Shown: positions 15,278 through 37,390, counted from the first letter of the stretch. The stretch: DNA of 64,000 nt from an uncultured Actinomycetota bacterium (GCA_963717135.1 CAVQVN010000009.1:632269-696268); one strand, 5' to 3'. Made by a program: numbers and translations. The notes: a model not told the origin generated them from the letters alone.

Positions 15278-15314
15278 GCGATAGTCCTCCCCTCAAATTT
15301 GTAGTGTTCTTCCT

Positions 15315-16895: not shown

Positions 16896-16950
16896 GGTCC
16901 CGCTCTCCTCTCCAGGAGTAGTCCAGCTCGAATCCCACTCCAAAACCCAT

Positions 16951-16966
16951 CCTATCGAGGGATAGG
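16951..16966. promoter_or_regulatory. AmtR-box-like palindrome CCTATC-GAGG-GATAGG (copy 1) upstream of the ABC transporter operon
   Basis: Seen directly. 6+6 inverted repeat, 4-nt spacer. Confidence 0.6.
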
Positions 16967-18935: not shown

Positions 18936-20560
18936 CCTCGCCCTCCGGTTGGTCCTCCGTGCACGATCTCGCCACCGAGGACGGTCATCCACACGCCGAG
19001 GTGGCGAATCTCGCTCGGATCGACAGAAAAAATATCGCCGTCGACGACGGTCAGGTCGGCCAGCTTCCCGGGCTCGATCGAGCCGAGGCGATCCTCGGCG
19101 AAGATGGCGTGGGCGGCGTCGATGGTGTGGGCCCGCACCGCTTCCTCAACGGTCAGTGCCTGATCGGCCCCGATCGGGCGTCCCCCCATGGTCTTGCGAA
19201 GCACTGCGTTGGTGACCGTCTCCAGCGGCCGGTACGAGGTGACGTCGGAGTCGCTGCTCAGCACCACCTTGACTCCGGCATCGAGTTCGGCGCGCATCGG
19301 CTGCAACCGGTGGGCACGATCACCGAGCCGGGAGAGGAACTCGTCGCCCTGGTCGTGCAGGTAGTTGGGCTGGTTGATGGCGAAGACGCCGAGCCGGGCC
19401 ATGCGATCGATCTGATCTGGTCTCGGGTAGCCGCAGTGCTCGATGCGATGGCGGGGATCGGGACGAGGATGCGCCTCCATGGCATCCTCGAAGGCGTCGA
19501 GGACCGCCTCGATGGCCAGATCCCCCTGAGCATGGACGCCGACCTGCCACCCCCGGCTATGTGCCCTGTCGATCATGGCCCCCAGTTCAGCCGGCTCCCA
19601 GTACCGGAGGCCTGCGAACTCGCCGTCCTCGCCGTAGGGCTCAGAGAAGACCGCCGTGCCTCCGATCAACGAACCGTCCATGTAGAACTTCATCGGACCC
19701 AGCCACAGAAGGTCGTCGCCGAAGGGACCGGCCAGCCCGATCGAGCCGTACTCCTCGAGTTGATGGGACAGTGGCATGATCGCCACTCGTAGCCACCATT
19801 TCCCGCGGCGGCGGGCCTCGCGGTAACCGGCCATCTCGCGGCGCGTCACCTGGGCGTCGCACACGGTTGTCAGACCGGCTGCGAGGAAAGCCCGGCCGGC
19901 TCGCTCTATGGCGCCGACCAGTTCGTCGAGGCCGGCTTCCGTGTGGAAGTTGGGACCGTGAGAGCCGATGTCGACCACCACCGGTTGCACGAGACCCTGG
20001 GCGGCATCCTGGAACAACCCGGTAACGCGGCCCTCGCCGTCTCTCACGAGCCGGCCCCCTTTCGGATCCGGGGTAGCGTCGTTGAGGCCGGCGGTCTCGA
20101 GCGAGCGTGTGTTGACCAGGAGATAATGGCCCGAGACGTGGGAGATAGCGACCGGATGGTCCGTAGTGGCGCGGTCGAGATCCCACCGGGTTGGAGCCCT
20201 GTCGTACTTACCGTGGTCAAAGCCGAAGCCTCTGATCCACAGCCCCGGTGGCGTGTCGGCTGCCACGGCTGCCACTGCGGCGACGAGGTCCTCCACCGAA
20301 GCGACTGCCGGATAACGGGCGTCGATCGACGCCAGCGACTCGCCGGTCATCAGATAGTGGTTGTGGGCGTCGATGAAGCCGGGCACCATGGTCCGGCCGC
20401 CTAGATCGATCCTCGCCGCGTCCGGATAGGTTCTGAGAACCTCTTCATCGCCGCCCACCATCAGAATTCGTCCGGTCCGAACGGCCACCGCCTCGGCCCA
20501 TGACCCGGAACGATCGGCGGTATACACCGAGCCGCGGTGGAACACCCGCAGGTCGTTCAT
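18932..20560 (-). CDS. Metal-dependent amidohydrolase (amidohydrolase-3 family)
   Basis: Start placed at ATG 20560 (MNDLRVF…), which makes an ATGA overlap with the upstream aminotransferase stop. GFIDAHNHY motif. Confidence 0.8.
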   Translation of the reverse strand: MNDLRVFHRGSVYTADRSGSWAEAVAVRTGRILMVGGDEEVLRTYPDAARIDLGGRTMVPGFIDAHNHYLMTGESLASIDARYPAVASVEDLVAAVAAVAADTPPGLWIRGFGFDHGKYDRAPTRWDLDRATTDHPVAISHVSGHYLLVNTRSLETAGLNDATPDPKGGRLVRDGEGRVTGLFQDAAQGLVQPVVVDIGSHGPNFHTEAGLDELVGAIERAGRAFLAAGLTTVCDAQVTRREMAGYREARRRGKWWLRVAIMPLSHQLEEYGSIGLAGPFGDDLLWLGPMKFYMDGSLIGGTAVFSEPYGEDGEFAGLRYWEPAELGAMIDRAHSRGWQVGVHAQGDLAIEAVLDAFEDAMEAHPRPDPRHRIEHCGYPRPDQIDRMARLGVFAINQPNYLHDQGDEFLSRLGDRAHRLQPMRAELDAGVKVVLSSDSDVTSYRPLETVTNAVLRKTMGGRPIGADQALTVEEAVRAHTIDAAHAIFAEDRLGSIEPGKLADLTVVDGDIFSVDPSEIRHLGVWMTVLGGEIVHGGPTGGRG

Positions 20561-21951
20561 CGCATCATTTCCTCGGCCGCCGCATGGGCCAGCGGGATCG
20601 CTTGGCGCAAGGTGGCAACGATGAAGTCCACATCGTCGCGGGTGATGATGAGGGGAGGTGACATGATGTTGAGGTTCTCCACCGGTCGCACGATCAATCC
20701 GAGAGCGTCGCATTCGTTGGATACCCTTTTGCCGATATCTACCTCGTACGGGTAGGCCTCACCGGTCTCGGTATCACGCACGAACTCGATGCACACCATC
20801 AGATGGGATCCACGCACATCACCGACCATGGGCAACTCTCGCAGCGTCTCCAACTGCTCCATGAAGTACGGCCCGATGGCGCGGACGTGCTCGAGGATCC
20901 CTTCGCTCTCCAGGATCTCGATGTTCTTCAGAGCCGCGGCGCAGGACACCGGGTGCCCTCCGTAGGTGAATCCGAGGGGCAGATAGCCTGGTCCGCGACC
21001 CGACTCGGATATCACGTCAAATATCCTGTCCGAGAAGATCGTCGCTCCGAGCGGGAGGTAACCGGAGGTGAGGCCTTTGGCCGACGTGATTATGTCGGGT
21101 TGGATTCCGAACAGCTTCTCGGAGGCGAACCACTCTCCCAGTCGGCCGAAGCCGGTTACCACTTCGTCAGATACATAGATGATGTCGTTGGCTCGGCAGA
21201 ACTCCCAGATCCGCTTGAGGTAGTTGTCGGGTGGAGGAATCACGCCGCCGGCTCCCATTATCGGCTCGGCGAAAAAGGCCGATACGTACCCGGCTCCGCC
21301 GAGTTCCTCTACCTTGGCCTCGAACTCGGCAACCAGTTGATCGGCGAAGGCTTTCTCAGATAACCCTTTTCCGTACCGGTAGATGTTCGGCGAACTCAGA
21401 TGGTGCACATTGTCGAGGAACTCGAACTCGTCGATCCTGTCACCGGGCTTACCGCCGATGGAAACGGCCGCGTAGGTCTGACCGTGATAGGCATCGACCC
21501 GCGAGATCACATGTCGTTTCTCGGGCTTGCCGCGTACAGCTTGGTAGAACTGGGCGATGCGGTAGGCCAGGTCGTTGGCGGTCGACCCGCCGGTGCTGAA
21601 GAACACATGGTTCAGATCGCCCGGAGCCAACTCGGCGAGTTTGGTGGCCAGGTCGGCAGCCGGAATGTGGGTCATGTCCACGAAAGGATTCGAGTAAGCC
21701 AGTCGCCGGACTTGATCGGCAATGGCTTCCACCATGTCTTCACGACCCAGACCAATGTTCGTGCACCACAATCCACCGACTGCATCGACGTATCGCTTGC
21801 CGTTCGTGTCGGTGATGTAGGCACCTGCGCCGGAAGCGATCGGAAGGGCGCCCTCCTCGGCGAAGGTGTCGAACACCTGATAGGGATGGACGTGATGGCG
21901 TTTGTCGCGTTCGACCACGGCCGGGGTTTCGGTGCTCATGTAGTTGGTCAT
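20557..21951 (-). CDS. Class-III (ω-amino acid / diamine) aminotransferase
   Basis: 464 aa. PLP fold-type I class III blocks (…GGLWCTNIGLG…, DEVVTGFGRLGEWF, …SAKGLTSGYLPLGA…). Confidence 0.9.
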   Translation of the reverse strand: MTNYMSTETPAVVERDKRHHVHPYQVFDTFAEEGALPIASGAGAYITDTNGKRYVDAVGGLWCTNIGLGREDMVEAIADQVRRLAYSNPFVDMTHIPAADLATKLAELAPGDLNHVFFSTGGSTANDLAYRIAQFYQAVRGKPEKRHVISRVDAYHGQTYAAVSIGGKPGDRIDEFEFLDNVHHLSSPNIYRYGKGLSEKAFADQLVAEFEAKVEELGGAGYVSAFFAEPIMGAGGVIPPPDNYLKRIWEFCRANDIIYVSDEVVTGFGRLGEWFASEKLFGIQPDIITSAKGLTSGYLPLGATIFSDRIFDVISESGRGPGYLPLGFTYGGHPVSCAAALKNIEILESEGILEHVRAIGPYFMEQLETLRELPMVGDVRGSHLMVCIEFVRDTETGEAYPYEVDIGKRVSNECDALGLIVRPVENLNIMSPPLIITRDDVDFIVATLRQAIPLAHAAAEEMMR

Positions 21952-21983: not shown

Positions 21984-23117
21984 TCAGAATCCGGGGATCT
22001 GTTTTGGGAAGTAGTCCTCCATGTCACCCTCTCGTTCGATGTCGAGCGTCGCGCAATGCAGAGCCCCTCCAAACATCGAAACGTCGATGAAGTCGACCGG
22101 AACGACGTCGAAGCCCAGCCCGTCCAGCTGGTCCATGAAGGCCACCTCGTTCGACTCCACGCAGACCGTGTTGGGATCGAGCGAGAGCACGTTGTAGCCG
22201 AGCGACTCGTGACACATCGAGTAGGGCGGCTGCTTGGCCCCCGACACCGGAGCGCCTTCGATGATCTCCCAGTCGTTCATTCGGAGCAACTCGTGGAACT
22301 CGGGTATCAACGAGGGGTATTTCGGGTTGACGACTATCTGGCCGGGGCGCAGGGGCACGATGGTCACATCGATGTGCCATGGCTGAACCGTCCCACCGAA
22401 CCCGAGAACGTGGACTCGGTAGCCGCGCGACTCAAAGTGGCGTTTGAACCAGTCGATACCGGCACGATTGCTCGGCGCCGAATGCTGGATGAAGATGTCC
22501 TTGCCGAACCGCATGGCGTCCGCCGTGTCGAACAGTGGTTCCTTCTCGGTTAGGTGGAACTCAAAGCGCTCCATGCGTCGGGTTAGCTCCGCCTCGGTCC
22601 ACTTGTTGAAGAAGTCTTCCCAGTAGCCGGGAACGTACGACTCGTCCGACAGCCGGGGCTTGGGTGCCGCCTCCCACAAGAAGTTCGGATCCTCCTTGAA
22701 GTACTGCTCCAGCAGCGGTTTGTAGGCCAGGAACTCGAACCAACGAGCTCGCTGAGACATGGTCGCCTCGAGGATCTCGTGGCCGTAGGCCATGAGAATG
22801 TCGCGGGGGGGCATGGTCCCAAACATGTGGCTGCACTCCCAATCGGGCGTGCGGACGTATTGGCGGTCGTCCATCGAAGTCGGCCGGTCTACCCTGATCC
22901 CCCGGTTGGCGAGCATCGCGGCGAAACTCTCCATTTGCTCCGTCGCCTTCTCCACGTACGTGTCGGGAATAGGCGTCCACTCTCCCGGCTTGAGCCCGAG
23001 TTCGGGAAGATCGAGAACCATCCCCGCTTCGGGTGCCCCCACCATCCGGCTGTCGATTCGACCAACAATGACATGCTTGAGAGGGTCCCACTCATTCCAC
23101 GAGTTGACCTTCGTCAT
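21984..23117 (-). CDS. Amidinotransferase (glycine/inosamine amidinotransferase family), paralog 1
   Basis: 377 aa. Collinear with the AGAT/StrB family as recalled from memory (NEWDPL…VIVGR, PRDIL…GNEILEATM, WEAAPKP, FDAADA…RFGKDIFIQHS, HIDVT, GGALHCATLD with the catalytic Cys near the C-terminus). First gene of a 5-gene coupled operon. Confidence 0.85.
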   Translation of the reverse strand: MTKVNSWNEWDPLKHVIVGRIDSRMVGAPEAGMVLDLPELGLKPGEWTPIPDTYVEKATEQMESFAAMLANRGIRVDRPTSMDDRQYVRTPDWECSHMFGTMPPRDILMAYGHEILEATMSQRARWFEFLAYKPLLEQYFKEDPNFLWEAAPKPRLSDESYVPGYWEDFFNKWTEAELTRRMERFEFHLTEKEPLFDTADAMRFGKDIFIQHSAPSNRAGIDWFKRHFESRGYRVHVLGFGGTVQPWHIDVTIVPLRPGQIVVNPKYPSLIPEFHELLRMNDWEIIEGAPVSGAKQPPYSMCHESLGYNVLSLDPNTVCVESNEVAFMDQLDGLGFDVVPVDFIDVSMFGGALHCATLDIEREGDMEDYFPKQIPGF

Positions 23118-23153: not shown

Positions 23154-23169
23154 GCCTATCAAATGATAG
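23154..23169. promoter_or_regulatory. AmtR-box-like palindrome CCTATC-AAAT-GATAGA (copy 2) between amidinotransferase-1 operon and divergent TetR/AmtR-like gene
   Basis: Seen directly. 37 bp upstream of the amidinotransferase-1 start. Confidence 0.6.
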
Positions 23170-23283: not shown

Positions 23284-23937
23284 ATGACGAAGGCAACCGC
23301 CGGCGATGAGCCCGGGACTCGTGAACGCATCCTGGTCGAAGCTTCGCGCCTCCTGTCGCTCAACGGATACCGTGCCACAACGACCCGAGAAATCGCAGCC
23401 GCCGTGGGCATCAGTCAGCCGTCACTGTTCTTCCACTTCCCGACCAAGCGAGCGATCGTTGAGGAGTTGTATCGGTCCGATCTCATCCCGGCCTTGCGAG
23501 GCTTCGAGAACGTCGTAGCGAGCCAAGGCACACCGGGCGCCAAACTATTCGCGATGATCGCCGGTGAAGTGGATCGGGCCATGGGTTCCCCCTTCGACAT
23601 GCGTGCCTATATCAGCTTTGAGGCTCTCAATGACCCCGAGTTGGAGGAATTCCGCGATCTCCTACAGCAGTTCGATGACCTGACCGGCGAGTTGATTCGC
23701 GCCGGCCAGAAGTCCGGTCAGTTCATCAAGGGAGACGCGTGGTTGGCCCAACAGATGGTGAGCGGGTTCCTGGCCCGATCGAACCTGTTCCTCACTACAG
23801 ATGAGAGTCGTCGACCGTTCCACCCGGAAGAATCGGCCTCGATGATCTTGCGAGCTCTTCTCGCGGATCCAGAAACGCTGACCACTGTGAGAGCGGAGGC
23901 GGTCCATCTGATCACGGCCTACAACGCCGGCTTGTAG
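23284..23937 (+). CDS. TetR-family transcriptional regulator, AmtR-like
   Basis: 217 aa from ATG 23284. HTH region TTTREIAAAVGISQPSLFFHFPTKRAIV resembles C. glutamicum AmtR as I recall it (…QIADAVGIRQASLYYHFPSK…). An AmtR-type box lies in its own upstream region. Confidence 0.75.
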   Translation: MTKATAGDEPGTRERILVEASRLLSLNGYRATTTREIAAAVGISQPSLFFHFPTKRAIVEELYRSDLIPALRGFENVVASQGTPGAKLFAMIAGEVDRAMGSPFDMRAYISFEALNDPELEEFRDLLQQFDDLTGELIRAGQKSGQFIKGDAWLAQQMVSGFLARSNLFLTTDESRRPFHPEESASMILRALLADPETLTTVRAEAVHLITAYNAGL

Positions 23938-24015: not shown

Positions 24016-25446
24016 ATGTCCGACGAACTCAGTCACCTCAGTGCGACTGAAGCACTCGCTTTGTTCCGCAGCCGGGAGCTTGCGCCGCTAGAACTCCTCG
24101 AAGCGGTGATGGCCCGTGCCCACGCTACCGAGCCGCTCGTCAATGCCTTCATGGATACCTACTTCGATGAGGCTCGCCAACAGGCAGAAGCAGCGGGTGA
24201 GGCGTACGCAACGGGAACGGCCAGGCCTTTGGAAGGTCTGCCGATCGCCGCCAAGGACGAACCCCGGGTCGACGGGAGACGGTGGACTCAGGGTTCCCTG
24301 CTCTTCGAGAACGAGATTGCCTCTGGGACCGACCCGATCACCGAGCGGGTTCTCGATGCCGGCGGCATCATCCACGCCCACACGACGACTCCGGAATTCT
24401 CAATGGCAATCGTTACGTGGACCTATCTCCACGGAATCACCAGGTCCCCCTGGAACCCGGCCATGACGTCGGGCGGTTCATCCGGAGGATCGGGGGCCAG
24501 CCTGGCATCCGGGTCGTCACTGCTGGCGACCGGGAGTGATATCGGCGGATCGATCAGAATCCCCGCCTCCATGAATGGAGTGGTCGGGTTCAAGCCACCC
24601 TGGGGTCGGGTCCCCGAATTCTGGCCGTGGAACCGTGAGCCGTACGCCGCTTCCGGGCCAATGGGGCGGACGGTAAAAGACGTCATCTTGTTTGAGAACG
24701 CCCTCTCCGGACCGCTGCCCGGCGACATGTTCTCATCGCCGCCACTCGACGTGCCGACCGATTTGCCCCCCGTCGGCGGAATGCGAATCGCTCTGAGCGC
24801 CGATCTTGGCTACTTCAACCCGGACGGTGAAATCGTCAACGCTCTGGAGTCGACCGCCGCCCAACTGCGCGAACTCGGGGCGGTGGTTGATCCGGTTGAC
24901 TTGGCATGGACCGATCAAGCCGAGGACACGGCATTGACGCACCTCTCGTTCCAATCCCGCCCAATCCTGCGCGGGTCGGTTCCCGACGAGTCAGATGACC
25001 GGTTGACTCCCTACATCAGGGAATTCCTCCAGCGGCCTCCCGTGTCCGTAGAGGAGTGGATGGAGAGCTGGCGCTACGCCGATGAGATGTACGAAGAACT
25101 GCAAAGCAAAGTGTTCCTGGCCGGCTACGACGCGTTGATCTGCCCGACACTGGTTACCACCTCCATCCCCGCCGATCTCGGTCATCCGGACTCAGGTTCG
25201 ACGAGCGATCTCGGCGAGCAACTGAAGCTCGTCATGACGTACCCGTTCAACATCCTTGGGCGGCTTCCGGTAGTCAACGTTCCCATCGGACTCGCTCCGA
25301 GCACCGGGGTTCCGATCGGGATGCAGATCGTCGGTCCGGTCGATGCCGATGCCATTCCCTTCCGGGTGGCTCTGGGACTCGAGGCAGAGTCCGGCAATCT
25401 CTTCGAGCATCATCGGCCGAGCCTGGGTCAACCGATCAGGAACTGA
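24016..25446 (+). CDS. Amidase (amidase-signature family)
   Basis: GGSSGGSGA signature with Ser-cisSer-Lys context (…KDEPRVDG…). ATG 24016 preceded by GGAG. Confidence 0.85.
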   Translation: MSDELSHLSATEALALFRSRELAPLELLEAVMARAHATEPLVNAFMDTYFDEARQQAEAAGEAYATGTARPLEGLPIAAKDEPRVDGRRWTQGSLLFENEIASGTDPITERVLDAGGIIHAHTTTPEFSMAIVTWTYLHGITRSPWNPAMTSGGSSGGSGASLASGSSLLATGSDIGGSIRIPASMNGVVGFKPPWGRVPEFWPWNREPYAASGPMGRTVKDVILFENALSGPLPGDMFSSPPLDVPTDLPPVGGMRIALSADLGYFNPDGEIVNALESTAAQLRELGAVVDPVDLAWTDQAEDTALTHLSFQSRPILRGSVPDESDDRLTPYIREFLQRPPVSVEEWMESWRYADEMYEELQSKVFLAGYDALICPTLVTTSIPADLGHPDSGSTSDLGEQLKLVMTYPFNILGRLPVVNVPIGLAPSTGVPIGMQIVGPVDADAIPFRVALGLEAESGNLFEHHRPSLGQPIRN

Positions 25447-26419
25447 TTCCCGCGGCCCGTTCGGCGATCCCGTTGAGGATCTCGAGGACTATCCGGTTGG
25501 CGAGAAACGAAGTGATCGCCCCCGGCCCGTCGTAGGGAGGAGATACCTCGACGATGTCGGCGCCCACGATGTTCAACTCTCGAGCCATCCTCCGGACCGA
25601 ATCGAGAATCTGCCGGCTGGTGAGACCGCCCGGTTCGGGGGTGCCCGTGCCGGGTGCCATTCCTGGATCCACGACGTCGATGTCGATCGACAGGAACACG
25701 CCGGTCGCTCCCTCGCCGGCGTAGGCGACCGCCTCGTCGACAACCGGCTTCAGCCCTCGATCTTCGATCTCGGTCATCAGGTAGCCACGCATGCCCTGGT
25801 CGCGCATCCAGGCCACGGTGTCGGGACCCGGCCAATAGCCCCGCAGCCCGATCTGCACGAACCGGTGTCCGGGCACCGCCCCCGATTCGATCAGCCTGCG
25901 CATCGGTGTTCCATGCCCGTAGAGCGATCCGTACCCGGTCATTTCGCCGGTATCCGGGTGGGCATCGAAATGAACGAGCGCCACTTCACCAAATCCAAAC
26001 ACTCGGGCAACTCCGGTGGCATTCGCATAGGTGATCGTGTGATCACCGCCGAGCACGATCGGGATCGAACCCGCCGCGGCCACACGCTCAACGGCGGAGG
26101 TGATGCGTTCCAGATCTCCTTCGATGTCCCCGGGATGCATCTCAACGTCGCCGATGTCGACTACCCCCTCTAGGGCATTGAGCCCGGTCGGGAGATGAGG
26201 CCGGTAGCCGTCGGCAGCGATGTAGTCGCTCTCACGGATGGCTTTCGGCCCGAACCGAGCACCCGGCCGATAGGAGGTGCCCCAGTCAAACGGCGCCCCC
26301 ATGATGACAACCCGGGCTCCCTGGAAGTCCTCGAGGGTGGCAGCCGGAACCCCGGCGAAAGAACTCGCAGCCGCAAAGGCGTGCAGGCGGCCCGACTCGA
26401 ATGGCATTCCAGCATTCAT
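25436..26419 (-). CDS. Ureohydrolase (arginase/agmatinase/guanidino-acid hydrolase family)
   Basis: 327 aa. Mn-binding motifs GGDHTIT, DAHPD, SIDIDVVDP. Confidence 0.85.
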   Translation of the reverse strand: MNAGMPFESGRLHAFAAASSFAGVPAATLEDFQGARVVIMGAPFDWGTSYRPGARFGPKAIRESDYIAADGYRPHLPTGLNALEGVVDIGDVEMHPGDIEGDLERITSAVERVAAAGSIPIVLGGDHTITYANATGVARVFGFGEVALVHFDAHPDTGEMTGYGSLYGHGTPMRRLIESGAVPGHRFVQIGLRGYWPGPDTVAWMRDQGMRGYLMTEIEDRGLKPVVDEAVAYAGEGATGVFLSIDIDVVDPGMAPGTGTPEPGGLTSRQILDSVRRMARELNIVGADIVEVSPPYDGPGAITSFLANRIVLEILNGIAERAAGISS

Positions 26420-26481
26420 CGACTTCTCCGCGGCATCTCCTGTGGCTCAGTCCCGCGTGAATCGAGCGCGAGCCACGATCT

Positions 26482-27603
26482 TCAGCAAGTCGCCAGAGCT
26501 TCCAGGGGCTCGACGTATTGATAGCCGAGTGCTCGAGCAACGTGCTCTTCGGTGACCTTGCCCTTGCAGACGTTGAGCCCTCCCAGCAAATGCTCATCGT
26601 CGAGCATCGCCTGCTTGGCTCCCTTGTCGGCCAGCGCCAGCGTAAACGGCAAGGTGGCGTTGTTGAGGGCATACGTTGACGTGCGCGGCACTGCTCCCGG
26701 CATGTTGGCAACGCAGTAGTGCACGATGTCGTCGACCACGTAGGTGGGATCTTCATGCGTGGTCGGGCGGGATGTTTCGAAGCAGCCGCCCTGATCGATG
26801 GCCACGTCGACCACGACTGAACCGGGTCGCATACGTTTGATCATGTCGGCGGTGACCAACCGGGGCGCCCGGTCACCCTTGACGAGGACGGCTCCCACCA
26901 CCAGATCGGCATCGAGCACCCACTCTTCCAGTGCCGAGGCGGTCGAGTAGACGGTCTGCAGAGCGGTGCCAAAGCGACGGGCGAGCCGATCGAGGACGGC
27001 GATGTTGTTGTCGAGGACTATGACTTCGGCTCCCAACCCGGCCGCCATCTGGATGGCATGCTCACCAACTACCCCACCGCCGATCACCACGACATTGGCG
27101 GCCTTGACTCCCGGCACTCCACCCAGCAGCAACCCGGATCCCCCGCTGGGGGCTTCCAGGCAATGCGCCCCGGCCTGGATCGACATACGACCGGCCACTT
27201 GCGACATCGGGGCCAACAGGGGCAAACCGCCCTCACGGTCGGTGACGGTCTCATAGGCGATACAGGTGGATCCACTCTCGACGAGTTCCCTCGTCTGATC
27301 GGGGTCGGGAGCAAGATGAAGATAGGTGAAGAGCACCTGATCTTCACCGAGCTGGGCCCGTTCCACAGCCTGCGGTTCCTTGACCTTGACTACCATCTCG
27401 GCCTGGTCCCAGACTTCTGCCGACGATGGAGCGATCCGGGCTCCGGCGGCGACGTATGCTTCGTCGGCCGCGCCGATCCCGATACCTGCACCTGATTCGA
27501 CCAGCACCTGGTGCCCGTGGGCAACGAGCTCTCTGACACTGGCCGGCGTCAGACCGACGCGTCGTTCCGCTTTCTTAATCTCTTTCGGGGCACCAACCAG
27601 CAT
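26482..27603 (-). CDS. ald: Alanine dehydrogenase
   Basis: Start reassigned to ATG 27603 (MLVGAPKEIK…) with a GGAGGT RBS. AlaDH/PNT N- and C-domains, NAD motif VIGGGVVG. Confidence 0.9.
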   Translation of the reverse strand: MLVGAPKEIKKAERRVGLTPASVRELVAHGHQVLVESGAGIGIGAADEAYVAAGARIAPSSAEVWDQAEMVVKVKEPQAVERAQLGEDQVLFTYLHLAPDPDQTRELVESGSTCIAYETVTDREGGLPLLAPMSQVAGRMSIQAGAHCLEAPSGGSGLLLGGVPGVKAANVVVIGGGVVGEHAIQMAAGLGAEVIVLDNNIAVLDRLARRFGTALQTVYSTASALEEWVLDADLVVGAVLVKGDRAPRLVTADMIKRMRPGSVVVDVAIDQGGCFETSRPTTHEDPTYVVDDIVHYCVANMPGAVPRTSTYALNNATLPFTLALADKGAKQAMLDDEHLLGGLNVCKGKVTEEHVARALGYQYVEPLEALATC

Positions 27604-27628
27604 TTCGCTATACCTCCGTTGCGAGCCG

Positions 27629-28843
27629 TCAAGCGGCTGCCAATACGACGCGAATAGACAAGAGCAGCTTATCGATCTGCTCATCGGTGATGACCAGAGG
27701 CGGGCACATTGACATATGGGGCGGAATCGGTCGAATGATCACACCTTCTTTCAGAAGGGCATCGCGGGCGGCGAGCACGTTCACACCGTCGGGCAGCGTG
27801 ATCGCCCACACGGCCCCCTCTCCCCGAACATCGACCACCAGGCCGTCGTCGCGCAATGCGAACAAGCCGGCCGACAACCGTCGGCCGATCTCGGTCGCCC
27901 GGGCCAGCAAGCCCTCGCGCTCCTGAATCTCGATGCACTTGAGGGCGGCGATACACCCGAGCGGATGACCCGAATACGTGTAGCCCGTCCTCAGCACGAA
28001 TCCCTCGTTCGCCTCCAGACCCTCCAGTACCGACGGTCCCACGATGACTCCCGACAACGGCACGTAGCCGGAGGTAACTGCCTTGGCGAAGGTGATCATG
28101 TCCGGGGTGACTCCGTAGAACTGGCTGCCAAACCATTCCCCGAGTCTCCCGAAACCGGTGATAACTTCGTCGAAAATGAGGAAGGCGCCGTACGTGTCGC
28201 ACAGATCGCGGAGGTGTGACAGGTATCCCTCCGGCGGCGGCCACACTCCCCCCGCCCCCTGGACCGGCTCGGTGATGACCGCGGCGATTTCGTCGCCATG
28301 CTCGGCGAAGATCCTCTTCATCGCTTCGTCGTCATCGGCCACCACATTGATGATGCCCGGGACCAATGGACCGAAACCGTCGCGGTTCGGGGCGATACCT
28401 TGCACCGAGGTTCCACCGTAGTTGGTGCCGTGATAGCCCCGCTCCCGGCTGACGATGACGTGCTTGTGGGGATTGCCTGCCTCACGGTGGGCAATCCGGG
28501 CCAGCTTCATCGCAGTGTCGACTGCCTCGGATCCGGAGGAGCCAAAGAACACCCGGGCTCGCTCAAAGGGCGACAGCTCGGCGATCTTGGCGGCCAACTC
28601 CTCGCTGGGCGGGTTCGTGAACGGGTCAAACGTGTGGTACGCCCCCAGTTTCCCGGCCTGTTCGGCTATCGCTTGGGCGATTTCTTCTCTTCCGTAGCCG
28701 ACGTTGGCATACCACAGAGAGCCCATACCGTCGATGTACTCGTTGCCCTGATCGTCGAAAATCAGGGCCCCCCGACCGCCGACGATCGAGATGAACTCGT
28801 CCTTGCGGGGCGGCGTGAATGGGTGCAAAAACGAGCTGGGCAT
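27629..28843 (-). CDS. Class-III aminotransferase, paralog 2
   Basis: Start at ATG 28843 (MPSSFLHPFTPP…) with an AGGAGG RBS. The listed ORF's extra 37 aa are upstream read-through. DEVITGFGRLGEWF block. Confidence 0.85.
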   Translation of the reverse strand: MPSSFLHPFTPPRKDEFISIVGGRGALIFDDQGNEYIDGMGSLWYANVGYGREEIAQAIAEQAGKLGAYHTFDPFTNPPSEELAAKIAELSPFERARVFFGSSGSEAVDTAMKLARIAHREAGNPHKHVIVSRERGYHGTNYGGTSVQGIAPNRDGFGPLVPGIINVVADDDEAMKRIFAEHGDEIAAVITEPVQGAGGVWPPPEGYLSHLRDLCDTYGAFLIFDEVITGFGRLGEWFGSQFYGVTPDMITFAKAVTSGYVPLSGVIVGPSVLEGLEANEGFVLRTGYTYSGHPLGCIAALKCIEIQEREGLLARATEIGRRLSAGLFALRDDGLVVDVRGEGAVWAITLPDGVNVLAARDALLKEGVIIRPIPPHMSMCPPLVITDEQIDKLLLSIRVVLAAA

Positions 28844-28866: not shown

Positions 28867-28882
28867 CCCTATCGGGTGATAG
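28867..28882. promoter_or_regulatory. AmtR-box-like palindrome CCTATC-GGGT-GATAGG (copy 3) in divergent aminotransferase-2 / amidinotransferase-2 promoter region
   Basis: Seen directly. 24 bp from the aminotransferase-2 start codon and 66 bp from the amidinotransferase-2 start. Confidence 0.6.
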
Positions 28883-28947
28883 GTAGTATATCGCCCACGA
28901 CCGCGCCGGACAACGCGGAATCCCCTGGACAAGAGTGAGGAGACGCT

Positions 28948-30081
28948 GTGCCAAAGATCGTCAACTCGTGGAACGAATGGAGCCGTCTCAAGCGAGTCAT
29001 TGTCGGGAGAGCCGACGGGACGATGGTGCAGGCGCCCGAGCCTGCCACGGTGCGCGATTGGCCTCAGTGGGGATTCCCCAAGGGGACCTACGGTCGGTTG
29101 CCGCAGGACATGGAAGACTCAGCCAACGAGCAACTGGACAATTTTGCGGCACTCCTGGAATCTCACGGGGTGGTCGTCGATCGGCCCGAACCGCTTGATT
29201 TCTCCCAGAAGGTCTCCACCCCCGACTGGAAGCAGGATTCGATGTTCGGAGTCATGCCGCCGCGTGACCTGCTACTCACGGTCGGCAATGAGATCCTCGA
29301 AGCGACGATGTCGCAGCGTTCTCGATGGTTCGAGTACCTGGCCTACCGACCTCTTCTCCAGAGCTACTTCGAGCAAGATCCGGAGTTCCGATGGGAAGCC
29401 GCCCCCAAGCCTCGCCTGACCGACGCCTCCTATGTCGACGGCATGGATTTCTGGGAGTACGCCGAGTCCTTCAGCGACGAGGAACAGATCGAACGGTTCA
29501 CCAAGAAGAAGCAGTGGAACCTAACGGAACACGAGCCGCTGTTCGACGCCGCCGACGTTGGGCGATTCGGGAGAGATCTCTTCGTGCAGCGATCCACCGC
29601 TACCAACGGCGCCGGGATCGATTGGCTGCGGCGCCACTACCCGGAGCACCGAATCCACGAGGTCCTCTTCTACGAAGCCCATCCGATGCACATCGACGCC
29701 ACATTCATCCCGCTGCGGCCGGGCCTGGCTTTGAGCAACCGGCAACGCGTTCCGATGACCGACGAAATGGTCAAGCTGTTCGAGATGAACGACTGGGAGA
29801 TAGTGCCGTGTGCGGAGCCGGCCCTCTCGGAGAAGCCGCCACTCTGCTTCTGCAGCGTGTGGCTTTCGATGAACACCCTGTTGCTCGACGAAAACACCAT
29901 ATTCGTGGAGGAATCCGAAAAGGCCCAGCAGCAGCAGTTCTACGAACTCGGTTTCGAGGTGATCCCCGTCCCCTTCTGGGCGGTCGGACCTTTCGGTGGA
30001 GGCTTGCATTGCGCCACCGCCGACGTCTATCGCGAGGGGAAGATGGAGGATTACTTCCCGAAGCAGATTCCCGGTTATTGA
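28948..30081 (+). CDS. Amidinotransferase (glycine/inosamine amidinotransferase family), paralog 2
   Basis: 377 aa, roughly 55-60% identical by eye to paralog 1 over the full length. Same C-terminal …GGGLHCATADV…EDYFPKQIPGY. Confidence 0.85.
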   Translation: MPKIVNSWNEWSRLKRVIVGRADGTMVQAPEPATVRDWPQWGFPKGTYGRLPQDMEDSANEQLDNFAALLESHGVVVDRPEPLDFSQKVSTPDWKQDSMFGVMPPRDLLLTVGNEILEATMSQRSRWFEYLAYRPLLQSYFEQDPEFRWEAAPKPRLTDASYVDGMDFWEYAESFSDEEQIERFTKKKQWNLTEHEPLFDAADVGRFGRDLFVQRSTATNGAGIDWLRRHYPEHRIHEVLFYEAHPMHIDATFIPLRPGLALSNRQRVPMTDEMVKLFEMNDWEIVPCAEPALSEKPPLCFCSVWLSMNTLLLDENTIFVEESEKAQQQQFYELGFEVIPVPFWAVGPFGGGLHCATADVYREGKMEDYFPKQIPGY

Positions 30082-30122: not shown

Positions 30123-31457
30123 ATGAGTAGACGCAAGGTAATCATCATCGGAGCCGCCGGCCGCGACTTCCACAATTTCAACACTCGCTATCGCGACGAC
30201 GAGTCGGTCGAAGTCGTGGCTTTCACCGCCGAGCAGATCCCGGGAATCGAGGGCCGCACGTACCCCGCCGAGCTGGCCGGACCGCTCTATCCGGGCGGCA
30301 TCCGGATCTACGCCGAAGAGGAGCTACCCCGCCTCATCGATGAGCTGGACGTGGATGAGTGTGCGTTCTCCTACAGCGACGTCTCCTACCAGCACGTGAT
30401 GGGGGTCTCGGCCATCGTTCAAGCCGCCGGAGCGTCCTTCACGCTGCTCGGACCCGGCGATACTCAGATCAAGAGCATCAAACCGGTGATCTCGGTATGC
30501 GCCATCCGGACCGGCTCGGGCAAGTCCCAGACCTCGCGCAAAGTCGTCGAGACGCTGATGGCCAAGGGCCTCAAGGTGGTCGCCATCCGCCATCCCATGC
30601 CCTACGGAGATCTCTCTGCCCAGAAGGTTCAACGCTTCGCCGAGCTGGCCGACCTCGAGAAGCATGATTGCACCATCGAGGAGATGGAGGAGTACGAGCC
30701 GCACATCGTGCGCGGCAACGTCATCTACGCGGGTGTGGACTACGAAGCCATCATCCGGGCTGCCGAGACCGACCCGGATGGCTGCGATGTCATAGTGTGG
30801 GACGGCGGAAACAACGACTTCTCGTTTTACCAAGCCGACCTGGCCATCACCGTCGTCGATCCGCACCGACCCGGCCATGAGCTTCGCTACTACCCCGGTG
30901 AGGTCAACCTCCGCACCGCCGATGTCGTCGTGATCAACAAGATCGATTCGGCCGATCTGGCCGGAATCGAAACCGTGCGCCGCAACATCGCCAAGGTCAA
31001 CCCAACCGCCAGGGTGATCGATGCTGCGTCAACGCTGCGACTCGAAGACCCCTCGGTGGTAGCCGGCCGGCGGGTGCTGGCGATCGAAGACGGGCCGACT
31101 CTGACTCACGGAGAGATGAAGATCGGCGCCGCGGTGGTGGCCGCCACCAAGTACGGAGCGACCGAATTCGTTGATCCCCGCCCGTTCCTGGTCGGGAAGC
31201 TGAAGGAGACCTTCGAGATCTACCCCAACATCGGAACGATCCTGCCGGCCATGGGCTACGGCGAAGAGCAGCTTCGTGACCTCGAAGCAACCATCAACGC
31301 CGCCGATTGTGACGCCGTCGTGATCGGCACTCCGATCGATCTTGCCCGGATTGTGCACATCGAAAAGCCCCACACGCGCGTGTTCTACGATCTGCAGGAA
31401 ATTGGCGAGCCGACTCTGACCGGTGTGCTCGAGGACTTCGTCGCCAAACTGGGATAA
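30123..31457 (+). CDS. P-loop-containing protein resembling the cyclic 2,3-diphosphoglycerate synthetase (cPGS) family (assignment tentative)
   Basis: 444 aa from ATG 30123 (AGGAGGG RBS). N-terminal KVIIIGAAGRDFHNFN Rossmann-like segment and P-loop-like AIRTGSGKSQTS. The family is recalled from memory, not verified. Confidence 0.55.
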   Translation: MSRRKVIIIGAAGRDFHNFNTRYRDDESVEVVAFTAEQIPGIEGRTYPAELAGPLYPGGIRIYAEEELPRLIDELDVDECAFSYSDVSYQHVMGVSAIVQAAGASFTLLGPGDTQIKSIKPVISVCAIRTGSGKSQTSRKVVETLMAKGLKVVAIRHPMPYGDLSAQKVQRFAELADLEKHDCTIEEMEEYEPHIVRGNVIYAGVDYEAIIRAAETDPDGCDVIVWDGGNNDFSFYQADLAITVVDPHRPGHELRYYPGEVNLRTADVVVINKIDSADLAGIETVRRNIAKVNPTARVIDAASTLRLEDPSVVAGRRVLAIEDGPTLTHGEMKIGAAVVAATKYGATEFVDPRPFLVGKLKETFEIYPNIGTILPAMGYGEEQLRDLEATINAADCDAVVIGTPIDLARIVHIEKPHTRVFYDLQEIGEPTLTGVLEDFVAKLG

Positions 31458-31527
31458 CGTGAACCAGGTTGGTCGGTGGACCGTCGCCGGCCAACCTCTT
31501 GGTCGAGACAACAGATGGAGGGGTGAC

Positions 31528-33339
31528 GTGGCGACAATCCTGAAGCCTGCGACCGAATTCGAAGTGAGCCGGTATTCCGTTGACCTGACCGATCAGACGG
31601 TACGGCATGAGACCGTCCGGTGCGAGGATCTCGAGGATGCTCTGGGTGGGATCGCCCGGGCTACCAAACTGCTGGCCGACCTCACGGTCGAAGATCCGTA
31701 CGATCCGGCGGCGCCCCTCGTGATGAACCTCGGGCTCTTGAGCGGAACCCAGGTGATGACCGGGTTGCGAACCTTCTTTCACGGCTACTCGCCTCTCAAA
31801 CAGGCGGTGAACGGCCAACCCGGGCTGATGTGGTCGGCCGGGAGCGGACATTTCGGCACCAAACTGCGCGGACTCGGGATCGACGAGGTCATCTTCACGG
31901 GCCGAGCGGACCGGCCCACCCTGCTGTATCTAGCTCCCGGCGGCGAAGAGGGGTCCGCTCACTTTCAATTCCTCGACGCAACCGACCTCACCGGCCGAAC
32001 CGTAAACGACCGGATTCAGGACCTGCACGGTCGGTATCCCGAGGCGCATTTCGCGGTGATCGGCCCGGCCGGGGAGCACTACGAATCGGTGCGCTTCGCC
32101 TCGATAGCCCTTTCCACGGACAATCAGCTGGAGAGCGGCGACGGCAAGCCCCGCTTCTGCGGGCGAGGCGGCTACGGAGGGGTGATGGCATCCAAGAACC
32201 TGTGGGCCATTGCCGCCGACGGGCCCAACCCGCCGCGGGCTCGCGGCCTGAAGGAAATCAACCGGGAGATCAACCTGGGCGAAGGCAGTGCCCGTTACCG
32301 GGACCTCGAACACGATCGGGGCGGCACCTGGCGAACTATGAAAATGATGCAGGAAGCTCAGTCGCTGCCCGAGTTCAACTTCGCCCCGACCGGCACCGAC
32401 GCCTCAGTTCCGCTGCTCCGGCCCAGCGTTGAGGAAGGACCCTACGTCGTGCAGGCGGAGGGGTGCTACCTGTGCGGGATCAAGTGCCACAAGAACGTTT
32501 TCGATCGGCTCGACGATGGCGAAGCCGGCACCTTTCGAGCCAAGGTCGACTTCGAGCCCATCACTCTGCTGTCCTCCAACCTGGGAATCTTCGATCCCGA
32601 TGTGGCGTTTTCCCTCATCGAGCTCACCGACGAATTGGGCATGGACTCGATCTCACTCGGTGTCACGCTGGGTTATGCGATGGATAACAACCGCCGCACC
32701 GGATCCCGCCTCCTCGGGGGACTGGCATTCTCCGACCCGGCCGGCGTCACCGAGGCGATCCGGGCGGTGGCCGCCGGACGGCTGCCCGAGTTGGGACAGG
32801 GTGTCAAGCGGCTGTCGGAGCAGGCGGGAGAAACCGCCTACGCCATGCATTCCAAAGGACTCGAGTATCCGGCCTACCAGCCGCACACGAACCCGGGATT
32901 TCCGTGGGCCCTGGCCGGCGGTCACATGTCGATGCGGACCTTTTTCCTCTACGTCATCGAGCGCGAGACCGGGGTTGATTACTGGGTCGACGCCATCACC
33001 AACCGGGGGCCCCTCTACTTGATGGACGACATCACCGGGCTGTGCAAGTTCGCCAATGTCGGTCCCGACTTCGAAGCCGAGGCGCTCCGGATCGCCACGG
33101 GTTTGAATATCACCGGCGAGCAACTCGCGGCGACCGTGATGCGGACCTTCCTGCGCGGCTATGCCTGTGAGCGACGATCCGGATTCGGCACCGACGACTA
33201 CCGGCTGCCCGCGGCAGCCCACGAGCCGATGGAGGGTTCCAACCTGCCGCACTTCAACACGTCCGAGTTCTTCGAAGAGGTGCAGTCGCGGGTGATGGAA
33301 ACCCTAGACCACCGCGCGGTCGAAGCCGGATTCATGTAG
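31528..33339 (+). CDS. Aldehyde:ferredoxin oxidoreductase (AOR) family tungsto/molybdo-pterin enzyme, copy 1
   Basis: 603 aa from GTG 31528 (GGAGG 6 nt upstream). AFOR_N-like start (ATILKPATEFEVSRYSVDLTDQTV…), GRGGYGGVMASKNLWAIA block, and CYLCGIKC (C-x2-C-x3-C), the [4Fe-4S] ligand spacing of AOR. Confidence 0.8.
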   Translation: MATILKPATEFEVSRYSVDLTDQTVRHETVRCEDLEDALGGIARATKLLADLTVEDPYDPAAPLVMNLGLLSGTQVMTGLRTFFHGYSPLKQAVNGQPGLMWSAGSGHFGTKLRGLGIDEVIFTGRADRPTLLYLAPGGEEGSAHFQFLDATDLTGRTVNDRIQDLHGRYPEAHFAVIGPAGEHYESVRFASIALSTDNQLESGDGKPRFCGRGGYGGVMASKNLWAIAADGPNPPRARGLKEINREINLGEGSARYRDLEHDRGGTWRTMKMMQEAQSLPEFNFAPTGTDASVPLLRPSVEEGPYVVQAEGCYLCGIKCHKNVFDRLDDGEAGTFRAKVDFEPITLLSSNLGIFDPDVAFSLIELTDELGMDSISLGVTLGYAMDNNRRTGSRLLGGLAFSDPAGVTEAIRAVAAGRLPELGQGVKRLSEQAGETAYAMHSKGLEYPAYQPHTNPGFPWALAGGHMSMRTFFLYVIERETGVDYWVDAITNRGPLYLMDDITGLCKFANVGPDFEAEALRIATGLNITGEQLAATVMRTFLRGYACERRSGFGTDDYRLPAAAHEPMEGSNLPHFNTSEFFEEVQSRVMETLDHRAVEAGFM

Positions 33340-33376: not shown

Positions 33377-35311
33377 TCACCTCTCGAATCCCATCCGGCG
33401 AAGGCCTTCGACCACGCGACCATCATCAAGCAGCTCCCGGAGAGCGGCGACCGCCGGGCGATCCCAACGCGGTTCGGGAACGGCAAAGTCGAACTGCTCG
33501 TCCTGTAGGAAGCGGAAGGTCAGTCCGGCGGCTTCCGCTACCGTGTCGAGGGTTACTCCCCAGTCCGCTCTCCCCTGCTCGACCGCCGCCACCACCGCGT
33601 GGTGGGTCCTGGGTTGATGCAGATACCCCTCGGGCCTGCTCCCGTCGAGTAATTGATCGATGAGAACCCGGGTTCCACTACCCGGGTTCCGGTTGACCAT
33701 CCGGTACGGACCACTTCGGAGGATTCCCGAGAGGTCTTCACCGTCGGCTTGTACCAGTTCATGGTCGTCGGATCGGAAGACGATCCCCTGGCGCCGCCGG
33801 TATCCGCGCAGCAGCCGAACCCCGGGCGGCAAGAAGGGCGTGTTGTACTCACCGGTCTCCTCATCCATCAGGTGGATACCGGCCAGGTCGGCCTCTCCCC
33901 GGCCTACTGCGGTCAGACCACCGGTGGATCCCACCGGCACCATCTTGACGCGGTATCCCCGGTCGGCCAGCCGGCCGAGCAGATAATCCAGACCGACACA
34001 GTGACTCCCGATGACGACCAGGTCGGCCGGACGCAACTCTGGATGCAGCAGATGGACCTCAACCAGAGCCCCCTCATCGATGAACTCCGTCGAGTCGGGG
34101 ATCCGGATGAAACCATCCGCCCGTCCGAACGCGGTCACGCTCCCCGAACCGGCCCCCTGGGGGTAAGCCGCCAGACCGGTAGGTCCCTCCACCAGGTCGA
34201 CCAGGTTGTACTCGGTCCTCCCGGGGGCCGAGGTGATGCGCAAAGGCACGGTCGCTTGCACGATCCCCCGCTCGCCGGTGGGCAAACCGGCCAGCCGGCG
34301 TAGCAAGGGCGCTACGAACTCGTGAAACGTAAATATGGCGGAGGTAGGAAAGCCGGGCAGCACCACCACCGGAATCCCCGAAACAACCGCCAGCAAGACG
34401 GGCTTGCCCGGCTTGAGAGCCACCCCGTGCACAACGATGCCGGCGGAATCGGGCAATCGTTCCGCCAGCTTCTGCACCACGGTGGAGTTGAGATCTCCTT
34501 CCCCCTTGGACGTTCCGCCCGACAACAGCACGACATCCACAGCCTCGGGCCCGGAGACCAGCCCCTCAATCGTTCGCGAGAGCAACGCCTCGTCGTCGGG
34601 AATGATCCCCCCCGCCACCGGCCGGCAACCGAGTTCGGCAACTGCGTCCGCCAGCATGCGCTGGTTGGAGTCAAATACCTGGCCTACTTCGAGAAGCCGT
34701 CCCGGTTCCACGATTTCGTCACCGGTCGACACCACCGCCACCCGCGGGCGGGCGATCACGTCGACCTGGACGACCCCGATCGCCGCCAGCACGCCGGTCT
34801 CGCGCGAACTGAGGTGGGTACCGCGCCGCATCACCGTATCGCCCCGACCGATATCGGATCCGGCGAAAGTGATGTTCCCACCCGGAACCGCCGGTCGGAC
34901 CACTCCGATGCCGTTCGGGTGGGGTTCGGTGTGCTCCACCATCAGCACTGCGTCCGCCCCCCGCGGGACCACTCCGCCGGTGGCCACCGCCACGGCCTCC
35001 CCGGAACTCACCTCGAAACCCACCGGGGGTGCTTGCCCGGCCACGAGCGAGATATCTGCAACAGACAGCACGATCGGGGCCAGTTCCTCGGCCCCGAAGG
35101 TGTCTTCGGCCCGCACGGCATACCCGTCCATGTTGCTCCGATCGAAAGCAGTTACATCGACGCCGGAGACGACATCGTCCGCCAGAACTCGCCCCAAAGC
35201 CGAATCCAGGCGGATGGTCTCGCGGCGCGGCCGCAGGTGGGCGCAGGCGGCCTCGAATCGCCGGTGGGCCACCGATTCGTCGACCACATCGAGAAACTGT
35301 CTCTGTCTCAT
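33377..35311 (-). CDS. Molybdopterin molybdenum/tungsten-transferase MoeA fused to a C-terminal periplasmic-binding-protein-like (oxyanion-binding-like) domain
   Basis: Start at ATG 35311 (ATGA overlap with the upstream gene). MoeA blocks (FDRSNMDGYAV, GGTSKGEGD, …GLPGFPTSA…) followed by ~190 aa of PBP-like domain (…MVPVGSTGGL…). Confidence 0.8.
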   Translation of the reverse strand: MRQRQFLDVVDESVAHRRFEAACAHLRPRRETIRLDSALGRVLADDVVSGVDVTAFDRSNMDGYAVRAEDTFGAEELAPIVLSVADISLVAGQAPPVGFEVSSGEAVAVATGGVVPRGADAVLMVEHTEPHPNGIGVVRPAVPGGNITFAGSDIGRGDTVMRRGTHLSSRETGVLAAIGVVQVDVIARPRVAVVSTGDEIVEPGRLLEVGQVFDSNQRMLADAVAELGCRPVAGGIIPDDEALLSRTIEGLVSGPEAVDVVLLSGGTSKGEGDLNSTVVQKLAERLPDSAGIVVHGVALKPGKPVLLAVVSGIPVVVLPGFPTSAIFTFHEFVAPLLRRLAGLPTGERGIVQATVPLRITSAPGRTEYNLVDLVEGPTGLAAYPQGAGSGSVTAFGRADGFIRIPDSTEFIDEGALVEVHLLHPELRPADLVVIGSHCVGLDYLLGRLADRGYRVKMVPVGSTGGLTAVGRGEADLAGIHLMDEETGEYNTPFLPPGVRLLRGYRRRQGIVFRSDDHELVQADGEDLSGILRSGPYRMVNRNPGSGTRVLIDQLLDGSRPEGYLHQPRTHHAVVAAVEQGRADWGVTLDTVAEAAGLTFRFLQDEQFDFAVPEPRWDRPAVAALRELLDDGRVVEGLRRMGFER

Positions 35312-36813: not shown

Positions 36814-36823
36814 GCCGGGCATC

Positions 36824-37390
36824 CTACGAGGAGCGTCGCGCGATTCGCCGGGCATACAGAGCGCCACCGGCGCGCCACATCGCCCACCCCAGCATTCCGC
36901 CGGCGGCGCCAAAGACGAGATGGTTGGCCAGGGCGCCCAGAAAGCCGAATACCTCGACGCGCCGCAGTATGTCGGAGATCCAGGCGTTGGCGAACACAAA
37001 TCCAAACTTGGCGAGGTGGATGACGACCCCGGCCAAGGATGCTCCCCACAGGCGTCGCATGGGCAGACGCAGCAGCGTCCCGGAGTCCAGGAGGCTTCCG
37101 GCCAGGCCGTACAGCATCATGTTGTAGCCAATCGAATGGCCCACGCCGATCGGGACTCCCCACAGTCCCATCGAAAGCCCGGCCACCGTGGCCATTCCGG
37201 CGCGCCCGTTGAGCAGACGGCCGGAAACCAGCACGGCAATCCACCCGACCCCGGCGTGGCCCGGGATGCCCAGGTGGAAGTCCAGATATCTTTTGGCGAG
37301 GGTTGCCACCAAGCCGACGGCCACTGCCAGGACCAGGTCGACCGAAAGCGATCGCGGCCGGGTTGATCTACTTCGAGCGAGTGTCTGCAT
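36824..37390 (-). CDS. Hypothetical integral membrane protein
   Basis: 188 aa, 5-6 predicted hydrophobic helices. Located inside the AOR-2 / moeA operon. No family recognised. Confidence 0.45.
   Translation of the reverse strand: MQTLARSRSTRPRSLSVDLVLAVAVGLVATLAKRYLDFHLGIPGHAGVGWIAVLVSGRLLNGRAGMATVAGLSMGLWGVPIGVGHSIGYNMMLYGLAGSLLDSGTLLRLPMRRLWGASLAGVVIHLAKFGFVFANAWISDILRRVEVFGFLGALANHLVFGAAGGMLGWAMWRAGGALYARRIARRSS

Follow-up and report, generated by a model that had tools for sequence, protein, structure and literature searches.

A transaminase, alanine dehydrogenase and ureohydrolase operon behind an AmtR-type operator in a putative nitrogen-scavenging island of an uncultured Actinomycetota bacterium

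A 64,000-nucleotide stretch of DNA from an uncultured Actinomycetota bacterium (GCA_963717135.1, CAVQVN010000009.1:632269-696268), here termed the window, carries three minus-strand genes for a class-III aminotransferase (AT2), an alanine dehydrogenase (Ald) and a ureohydrolase that probably form one repressible unit within a co-regulated nitrogen-scavenging island of ~32 kb (~7.9 to 41.8 kb of the window), acting by the steps proposed below. AT2 (27629-28843; 404 amino acids; PF00202, 304 bits) groups with pyruvate-type ω-amine transaminases, Ald (26482-27603; 373 amino acids; TIGR00518) with NAD-dependent L-alanine dehydrogenases and the ureohydrolase (25436-26419; 327 amino acids; PF00491, 288 bits) with the arginase/agmatinase family. 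The spacers measure 25 nucleotides between AT2 and Ald and 62 nucleotides between Ald and the ureohydrolase gene. An amidase-signature amidase encoded on the plus strand (24016-25446; 476 amino acids; PF01425, 272 bits) is convergent with the ureohydrolase gene, the two 3' ends sharing 11 nucleotides. Gene calls in relatives give the same four lengths (404, 373, 327 and 476 amino acids), in agreement with the starts chosen here. The open reading frames coincide exactly with the three minus-strand genes, the spacer and the convergent amidase described in an earlier reading of this DNA (the original prediction), whose family assignments are right by profile matches. Operon geometry and operator conservation likewise support its view of the three genes as a same-strand unit behind an AmtR-type operator. 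The window has a GC content of ~63%, and its proteins find matches in uncultured Acidimicrobiia, where homologues of the ureohydrolase reach 85-94% identity.

The window contains five perfect CTAT-N6-ATAG palindromes; the expected number is 0.10, and none of 100 shuffles reached five. All five share the stricter form CTATC-N4-GATAG, and each lies inside a promoter region of the same island. Operator 1 (CTATCACCTGATAG, 9144-9157) is located upstream of an MFS transporter gene (7902-9101, minus strand), operator 2 (CTATCGAGGGATAG, 16952-16965) upstream of a Dpp/Opp-type ABC transporter operon, and operator 3 (CTATCAAATGATAG, 23156-23169) between the operon of an amidinotransferase termed AmdT1 and a TetR-family regulator gene. 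Operator 4 (CTATCGGGTGATAG, 28869-28882) separates the AT2 operon from the divergent operon of a second amidinotransferase, AmdT2, and lies 26 nucleotides upstream of the AT2 start, while operator 5 (CTATCATTCGATAG, 40597-40610) falls between a gene of the aldehyde:ferredoxin oxidoreductase (AOR) family, AOR2 (38505-40462, minus strand), and a CoA-transferase III gene (40643-41803, plus strand). Directly upstream of operator 4, consensus matching alone identifies a σ70-like promoter on the minus strand (TTGTCC, 17 nucleotides, TATACT; 28885-28913), which stops 3 nucleotides before the box at 28869, so that its -10 element abuts the box. The box therefore covers the expected transcription start of the AT2 operon, in what would be the classic position for a repressor.

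A candidate for this repressor is encoded between operator 3 and the amidase gene. The TetR-family protein (23284-23937, plus strand) has AmtR structures as its best matches in the PDB (5mqq, 5dy1); the similarity (E 5e-12) covers the N-terminal 125 residues only, where the CTAT-reading Gln, Ser and His are conserved and Phe replaces Tyr57/58. The spacing of the boxes in the window agrees with the AmtR box consensus of Corynebacterium glutamicum, tttCTATN6AtAGat/aA (PMC2723105). The AmtR-type box is thus not only real, but stronger than originally claimed: it is far more frequent than expected, conserved in relatives and accompanied by an AmtR-like regulator. It appears to delimit a regulon much larger than the three-gene unit, and the TetR protein may regulate this pathway specifically and not nitrogen metabolism at large. 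In relatives, the island contains two TetR paralogues of this type. Control at the RNA level was considered separately: a hairpin in the 62-nucleotide spacer between Ald and the ureohydrolase gene has no folding advantage over shuffled sequence (z = 0.68) and is neither a terminator nor an attenuator, and a riboswitch was rejected after scanning the complete window against Rfam with gathering thresholds gave tRNA-Glu only and no ykkC or mini-ykkC guanidine riboswitch.

The operator varies together with the gene pair that it precedes. In eight of the 12 loci compared, each with an AT2 orthologue at ≥73% identity, Ald lies directly downstream of AT2. A box is located 25-40 nucleotides upstream of AT2 in nine related loci (L081, L082, L087-L090, L092, L094 and L115); it is present in all Ald-linked loci in which it could be assessed and in none of the four that lack Ald (L091, L093, L095 and L096). 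The remaining ~2.3 Mb of fetched loci yielded three matches to the box pattern, none of them with CTATC, so the box is essentially confined to this cluster. The four loci without Ald and operator place an AT2 orthologue of ~74% identity in housekeeping surroundings, beside rplK/rplA, a cyclase-AAA regulator, a GcvT-like protein and an amine oxidase, so that the same transaminase lineage serves a second, unrelated context there.

AT2 is ~50% identical to pyruvate-dependent amine transaminases, including 6gwi from Halomonas, 7ypm and the polyamine:pyruvate enzyme 9j4z; the β-alanine:pyruvate enzyme 4b98 is also among its top PDB matches. It contains the motif LW44..NVGYG, EPVQGAGG at position 192, the catalytic Lys254 and the flipping Arg371. 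In class-III transaminases, EPVQGAGG as opposed to a GEGG motif with its Glu switch is an established marker of the amino acceptor. AT2 carries EPVQGAGG rather than GEGG and lacks the Glu of the Glu-Arg switch typical of 2-oxoglutarate enzymes, so that subfamily and motifs point to pyruvate as its probable acceptor. In profile searches it reaches no NCBIfam equivalog cut-off, and it is short (404 versus ~455 amino acids) owing to N-terminal and loop deletions that its orthologues share. Ald exceeds the TIGR00518 equivalog cut-off (506.5 versus 391.85 bits) over residues 1-370 of 373 and has Arg15, Lys75, His96 and Asp270 at their exact positions; in Mycobacterium tuberculosis numbering, these are the substrate and catalytic residues of alanine dehydrogenase. 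As AT2 falls into the pyruvate-type ω-transaminase group, the natural reading is that Ald recycles alanine to pyruvate and NH4+. This predicted pyruvate/alanine shuttle, already part of the original prediction, is well supported by the AT2 group, the frequent pairing with Ald and the co-variation of both with the operator.

The third gene encodes a ureohydrolase in which all six ligands of the binuclear metal center are present (H127 in GGDH; D152, H154 and D156 in DAHPD; D246 and D248 in DID). It is co-regulated with AT2 and Ald, also where it is not adjacent to them. Its placement varies among relatives: L082 and L089 have it convergent with Ald, in L081 the distance is ~5 kb, and as a separate unit it has a box of its own (L081, position 9858; L089, position 14423). 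L089, a related metagenome contig, encodes two tandem arginase-family genes (12359-14272, minus strand) behind a CTATC-N4-GATAG box, convergent with AT2-Ald, which suggests more than one guanidino substrate. The PGAP label of the window enzyme is simply "agmatinase".

Taken together, we propose that the AmtR-like TetR protein would repress at least five transcription units by binding CTATC-N4-GATAG operators that overlap their promoters. Upon derepression, importers would take up amino and guanidino compounds, and the ureohydrolase would remove the guanidino group as urea; AGAT-like amidinotransferases or a deiminase may serve other substrates. AT2 would then transaminate the freed primary amine onto pyruvate to give an aldehyde and L-alanine, and Ald would oxidatively deaminate the alanine, regenerating pyruvate and releasing NH4+ and NADH. 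The aldehyde would be oxidized to the acid, probably by the AOR of the divergent operon. The gene identities, the operon geometry, the conserved operator, its co-variation with AT2 and Ald and the co-regulation of the ureohydrolase are observed, whereas we infer the acceptor of AT2, the flux direction, the substrate and the parts played by the AOR and the amidinotransferases.

Several observations weigh against the proposed unit or parts of it. The ureohydrolase is ~40% identical to each of four enzymes with different substrates, namely GpuA (guanidinopropionase), GbuA (guanidinobutyrase), GdmH (guanidine hydrolase) and PAH (proclavaminate amidinohydrolase); it is equidistant from all of them, and sequence alone assigns none of the four. 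An assignment from the nearest solved homologues consequently failed, all four matching at E 1e-50 to 1e-56. In GbuA and in the human enzyme GDAH, Arg72 and Arg105, respectively, cap the active site and bind the acidic group of the substrate (PMC9772407). The carboxylate-capping Arg72 of GbuA aligns with an invariant Asp70 in the ureohydrolase; an invariant Arg73 follows three residues later in a gapped loop, which carries a conserved D-G-Y-R-P-H sequence. Moreover, the ureohydrolase gene adjoins AT2-Ald in only four of the ~9 loci with sufficient flanking sequence, and some of the synteny reflects shared ancestry because the supporting loci belong mostly to Acidimicrobiia that are close relatives of one another. 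AOR1, the candidate for the aldehyde-oxidizing step, is divergent (E 2e-26 to the AOR of Pyrococcus furiosus), and its substrate may therefore not be a simple aldehyde. Finally, the window contains no urease, so the route to ammonia is incomplete within it. The original assignment of a guanidino-acid ureohydrolase is thus supported for the enzyme family, the same-strand unit and the co-regulation, but not for the specificity for guanidino acids, given four equidistant enzymes and polyamine- or agmatine-type contexts of orthologues (see below).

The closest conserved partners of the AT2-Ald-ureohydrolase operon are two amidinotransferases that had been left out of the earlier reading. AmdT2 (28948-30081, plus strand; 377 amino acids) is divergent from AT2, shares operator 4 with it and aligns with human AGAT (1jdw) over residues 5-370 at E 2e-78. 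AmdT1 (21984-23117, minus strand) is 51% identical to AmdT2, and both keep the motifs of the Cys-His-Asp triad (FDAAD, MHID and GG(L)HC). Neither window copy has a Pfam match. PGAP names such AGAT-like proteins "serine/threonine protein kinase" in several metagenome-assembled genomes of Acidimicrobiia, a propagating misannotation, whereas JGI lists glycine amidinotransferase.

Downstream of AmdT2 lies a gene for a P-loop NTPase (30123-31457, plus strand; 444 amino acids) that is co-conserved with it. PGAP names this protein cyclic 2,3-diphosphoglycerate synthase (CPGS), to which it has a sequence match at E 1e-3 and a fold match at E 3e-12. A structure model of mediocre confidence (pLDDT, the predicted local distance difference test score, of 69) has CPGS as best fold match at a template-modeling score of 0.39, which supports the family placement only and not a function. 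The CPGS-like protein is 82-100% identical over more than 100 clusters. Its gene adjoins the AmdT2 orthologue elsewhere too (L084, 13123-14466; L085, 11217-12557), with otherwise different neighbors (CN_hydrolase, OTCase, an ECF-type transporter and Fe-ADH). In distant genomes, in which AmdT2 orthologues are 74-75% identical, the two genes still lie side by side. Ald and the ureohydrolase are missing there, and the class-III transaminase close by is no orthologue of AT2. As the pair is retained without these genes, it represents an older module to which AT2-Ald-ureohydrolase is an addition of Acidimicrobiia. AOR1 (31423-33339, plus strand; start uncertain), a divergent member of the AOR family, completes this side of the island and also adjoins the CPGS-like gene in L081, L082 and L089. 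The AmdT2/CPGS-like/AOR1 layout recurs in L081, together with a Pot-type importer, a deacetylase and a urease, and in L089.

More tentatively, we consider that the AGAT-like amidinotransferases could act catabolically. They would move amidino groups from imported guanidino compounds to a carrier amine, and the ureohydrolase would cleave the guanidino product of the carrier, regenerating the latter and releasing urea. The de-amidinated amines would enter the aminotransferase, Ald and AOR steps, and the CPGS-like P-loop protein would provide an ATP-dependent step. We offer this scheme as a possibility that is more doubtful than the operon-level reading; if true, it would represent an undescribed and widespread bacterial pathway for scavenging guanidino nitrogen.

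AmdT1 heads a second operon on the minus strand. It is followed by AT1, a second class-III ω-transaminase (20557-21951; 464 amino acids; NF005447, 674 bits with a cut-off of 618), an Amidohydro_3 metallo-amidohydrolase (18932-20713 as the longest open reading frame; true start probably near 20560) and an agmatine-deiminase-like (PAD_porph) guanidino deiminase that stays under the equivalog cut-off (17928-18992). The ABC importer operon behind operator 2 (9873-16943, minus strand) encodes an SBP_bac_5 binding protein, two permeases, two ATPases and, at its end, a second Amidohydro_3 enzyme. AOR2, a second and canonical AOR, is split into two overlapping frames (AFOR_N, 39581-40462; AFOR_C, 38505-40049) by a single-base frameshift near 39843, which the sequence places in the run cgcGGGGCAAAC; the split points to a pseudogene or to an assembly error in a homopolymer. 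Two MoeA genes, one with a fused PBP-like domain, and a periplasmic PBP_like_2 binding protein flank the AOR genes (33377-37005, 42109-43191), which suggests a dedicated supply of tungsten or molybdenum cofactor for the island. Housekeeping genes bracket the island, with tRNA-Glu and glutamyl-tRNA synthetase on the left (152-1768) and GatB and GatA on the right (45407-48326); a pair of GH57 and glycogen-synthase genes is located at 53014-56384.

The amidase is probably co-transcribed with the TetR gene and belongs to the same regulon as AT2-Ald-ureohydrolase. In L081, a relative at 85% identity, its orthologue is the first gene of an operon that continues with the urease gamma/beta and alpha genes and has its own box (11765-15599, minus strand), and a second TetR paralogue follows the ureohydrolase gene. 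Searching the window by tblastn with the urease, the Pot-type binding protein and the polysaccharide deacetylase of L081 identified none of them. The amidase had been proposed to catalyze a guanidinobutyramide-type step, and the gene set to form a complete route from guanidino compounds to ammonia. We rejected the guanidinobutyramide route, as the annotated genes of the island include none that resembles an arginine 2-monooxygenase; this assignment of the amidase is unsupported, and in L081 the enzyme belongs to a urease operon. Completeness within 25436-28843 does not hold either, since the AOR step for the aldehyde sits in the divergent operon and urease is missing from the window.

How the unit is fed can be read differently. 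In a plain agmatine/polyamine route, which we regard as a real though lesser possibility, an agmatinase would yield putrescine and urea, AT2 would be a SpuC-type putrescine/polyamine:pyruvate transaminase, Ald would recycle pyruvate and an AOR would stand in for the usual aminobutyraldehyde dehydrogenase; a guanidino amine would replace the guanidino acid and the shuttle would be kept. Profile searches are divided on this point: the ureohydrolase exceeds the cut-off of the "agmatinase" model TIGR01230 (196 versus 174 bits), but remains below that of the SpeB subfamily model PRK02190 (224 versus 302 bits), and solved bona fide agmatinases are farther from it (E 1e-40) than GpuA, GbuA, GdmH and PAH. 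The invariant Asp70 at the position of the carboxylate-binding Arg of GbuA fits an amine substrate, as does the presence of putrescine and polyamine:pyruvate transaminases among the PDB neighbors of AT2. Genomic context points the same way. A GTDB scan with the ureohydrolase gave 80 loci with orthologues of 56-70% identity and without amidinotransferases, in which aldehyde dehydrogenase (25), class-III transaminase (25) and PotD/F-like ABC importers (15-19) recur, together with an FAD oxidoreductase, a pyridoxal-phosphate-dependent decarboxylase and a GNAT acetyltransferase. This neighborhood resembles a polyamine- or agmatine-like setting, and in L081 the ureohydrolase gene is divergent from the Pot-type importer with a box between them. 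The importer of the window is, however, Dpp-type and not Pot-type, and PotF-like binding proteins also accept ω-amino acids, which lessens the weight of such neighbors. On balance, the window enzyme is no less likely to have an agmatinase-type activity than to be a guanidino-acid hydrolase, and either would feed a pyruvate-type transaminase.

Two further explanations depart more strongly from the proposed unit. The island could run in the biosynthetic direction, in a streptidine-like sequence of oxidation, transamination, phosphorylation and amidination: the AOR would convert an acid to the aldehyde, AT2 would aminate it with alanine remade by Ald from pyruvate and NH4+, the CPGS-like, kinase-type protein would activate the product and AmdT2 would amidinate it to a guanidino compound. 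Pairs of aminotransferase and amidinotransferase genes do occur twice in the island, StrB1 is a homologue at E 6e-54 in the amidinotransferase comparison, and even distant genomes keep the kinase-like P-loop protein in tight linkage with AmdT2. We nevertheless consider this direction improbable: the ureohydrolase, deiminase-like enzyme, amidase, two amidohydrolases and importers of the regulon, as well as the urease of L081, are all degradative, control by an AmtR-type repressor speaks against synthesis, and export or self-resistance genes are not evident. Slightly less probable still is a taurine variant, in which the ureohydrolase would split taurocyamine into taurine and urea and AT2 would be a taurine:pyruvate aminotransferase (Tpa) working with Ald as in Bilophila and Rhodococcus. 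For this variant, the Tpa-Ald pairing is a classic precedent (PMC8667426), human GDAH prefers and GATM makes taurocyamine (PMC9772407), and marine Acidimicrobiia have been reported to use taurine proficiently and to carry GATM. The annotated island genes, however, include neither a homologue of the thiamine-pyrophosphate-dependent sulfoacetaldehyde acetyltransferase xsc nor a sulfite-handling gene, and no Tpa-specific match was seen for AT2 in profile and PDB searches.

Returning to the repressible AT2-Ald-ureohydrolase unit, the operon alone is an ordinary recombination of known modules; the potentially new part is the catabolic use of amidinotransferases. Our literature search found no published co-regulated island that combines AGAT-like amidinotransferases with a CPGS-like protein in what looks like a catabolic context. 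In the island, three modes of guanidino removal (hydrolysis with release of urea, deimination and transfer of the amidino group) would be linked to a transaminase/Ald deamination line that recycles itself and to an aldehyde oxidoreductase of the tungsten/molybdenum type. Guanidino compounds such as agmatine, guanidino acids and the breakdown products of phosphagens are nitrogen-rich dissolved organic matter whose bacterial sinks are poorly mapped, and in these abundant uncultured Acidimicrobiia the island offers a regulon that is defined by its repressor and can be tested. It also lays bare annotation problems in the PGAP labels of the amidinotransferases and the ureohydrolase.

Parts of this arrangement are familiar from other organisms. 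The GbuA/GpuA and arginine transaminase pathways of Pseudomonas aeruginosa share the logic that an arginase-fold ureohydrolase, ~40% identical to the window enzyme, frees urea and the resulting amine enters an ω-transaminase step. The P. aeruginosa genes gbuA and gpuA are under the LysR-type regulators GbuR and GpuR. They are not in an operon with a transaminase and Ald, in contrast to the genes described here, and no Arg of the window enzyme aligns with the specificity-determining Arg72 of GbuA. The AmtR regulon of C. glutamicum resembles the island in its TetR-family repressor and CTAT-N6-ATAG operator over nitrogen-scavenging genes, including those for creatinine/creatine and urea utilization (PMC2723105, PMC8864220); it differs in that the regulator encoded here is only weakly similar to AmtR and has a second paralogue in the islands of relatives. 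The AT2-Ald shuttle is itself an already known design, in which Tpa is combined with Ald: the taurine cluster of Bilophila encodes Tpa and a "pyruvate-regenerating alanine dehydrogenase" beside the ω-transaminase (PMC8667426). In these inducible clusters of Bilophila wadsworthia and Rhodococcus, a pyruvate-using class-III ω-transaminase adjoins an Ald through which pyruvate is regenerated and ammonium released (PMC8667426), whereas the operon in the window lacks sulfoacetaldehyde-processing genes, has a ureohydrolase, an AGAT-like amidinotransferase and an AOR as partners and would be controlled by an AmtR-like repressor. The pairing of AGAT with a guanidino-acid hydrolase, finally, has been described in humans, where the AGAT-type amidinotransferase GATM and the GbuA-like ureohydrolase GDAH (AGMAT) act on one pool of linear guanidino compounds (PMC9772407). 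The human genes are unlinked and GATM is biosynthetic, whereas the bacterial counterparts share a divergent promoter and operator region in an apparently catabolic island.

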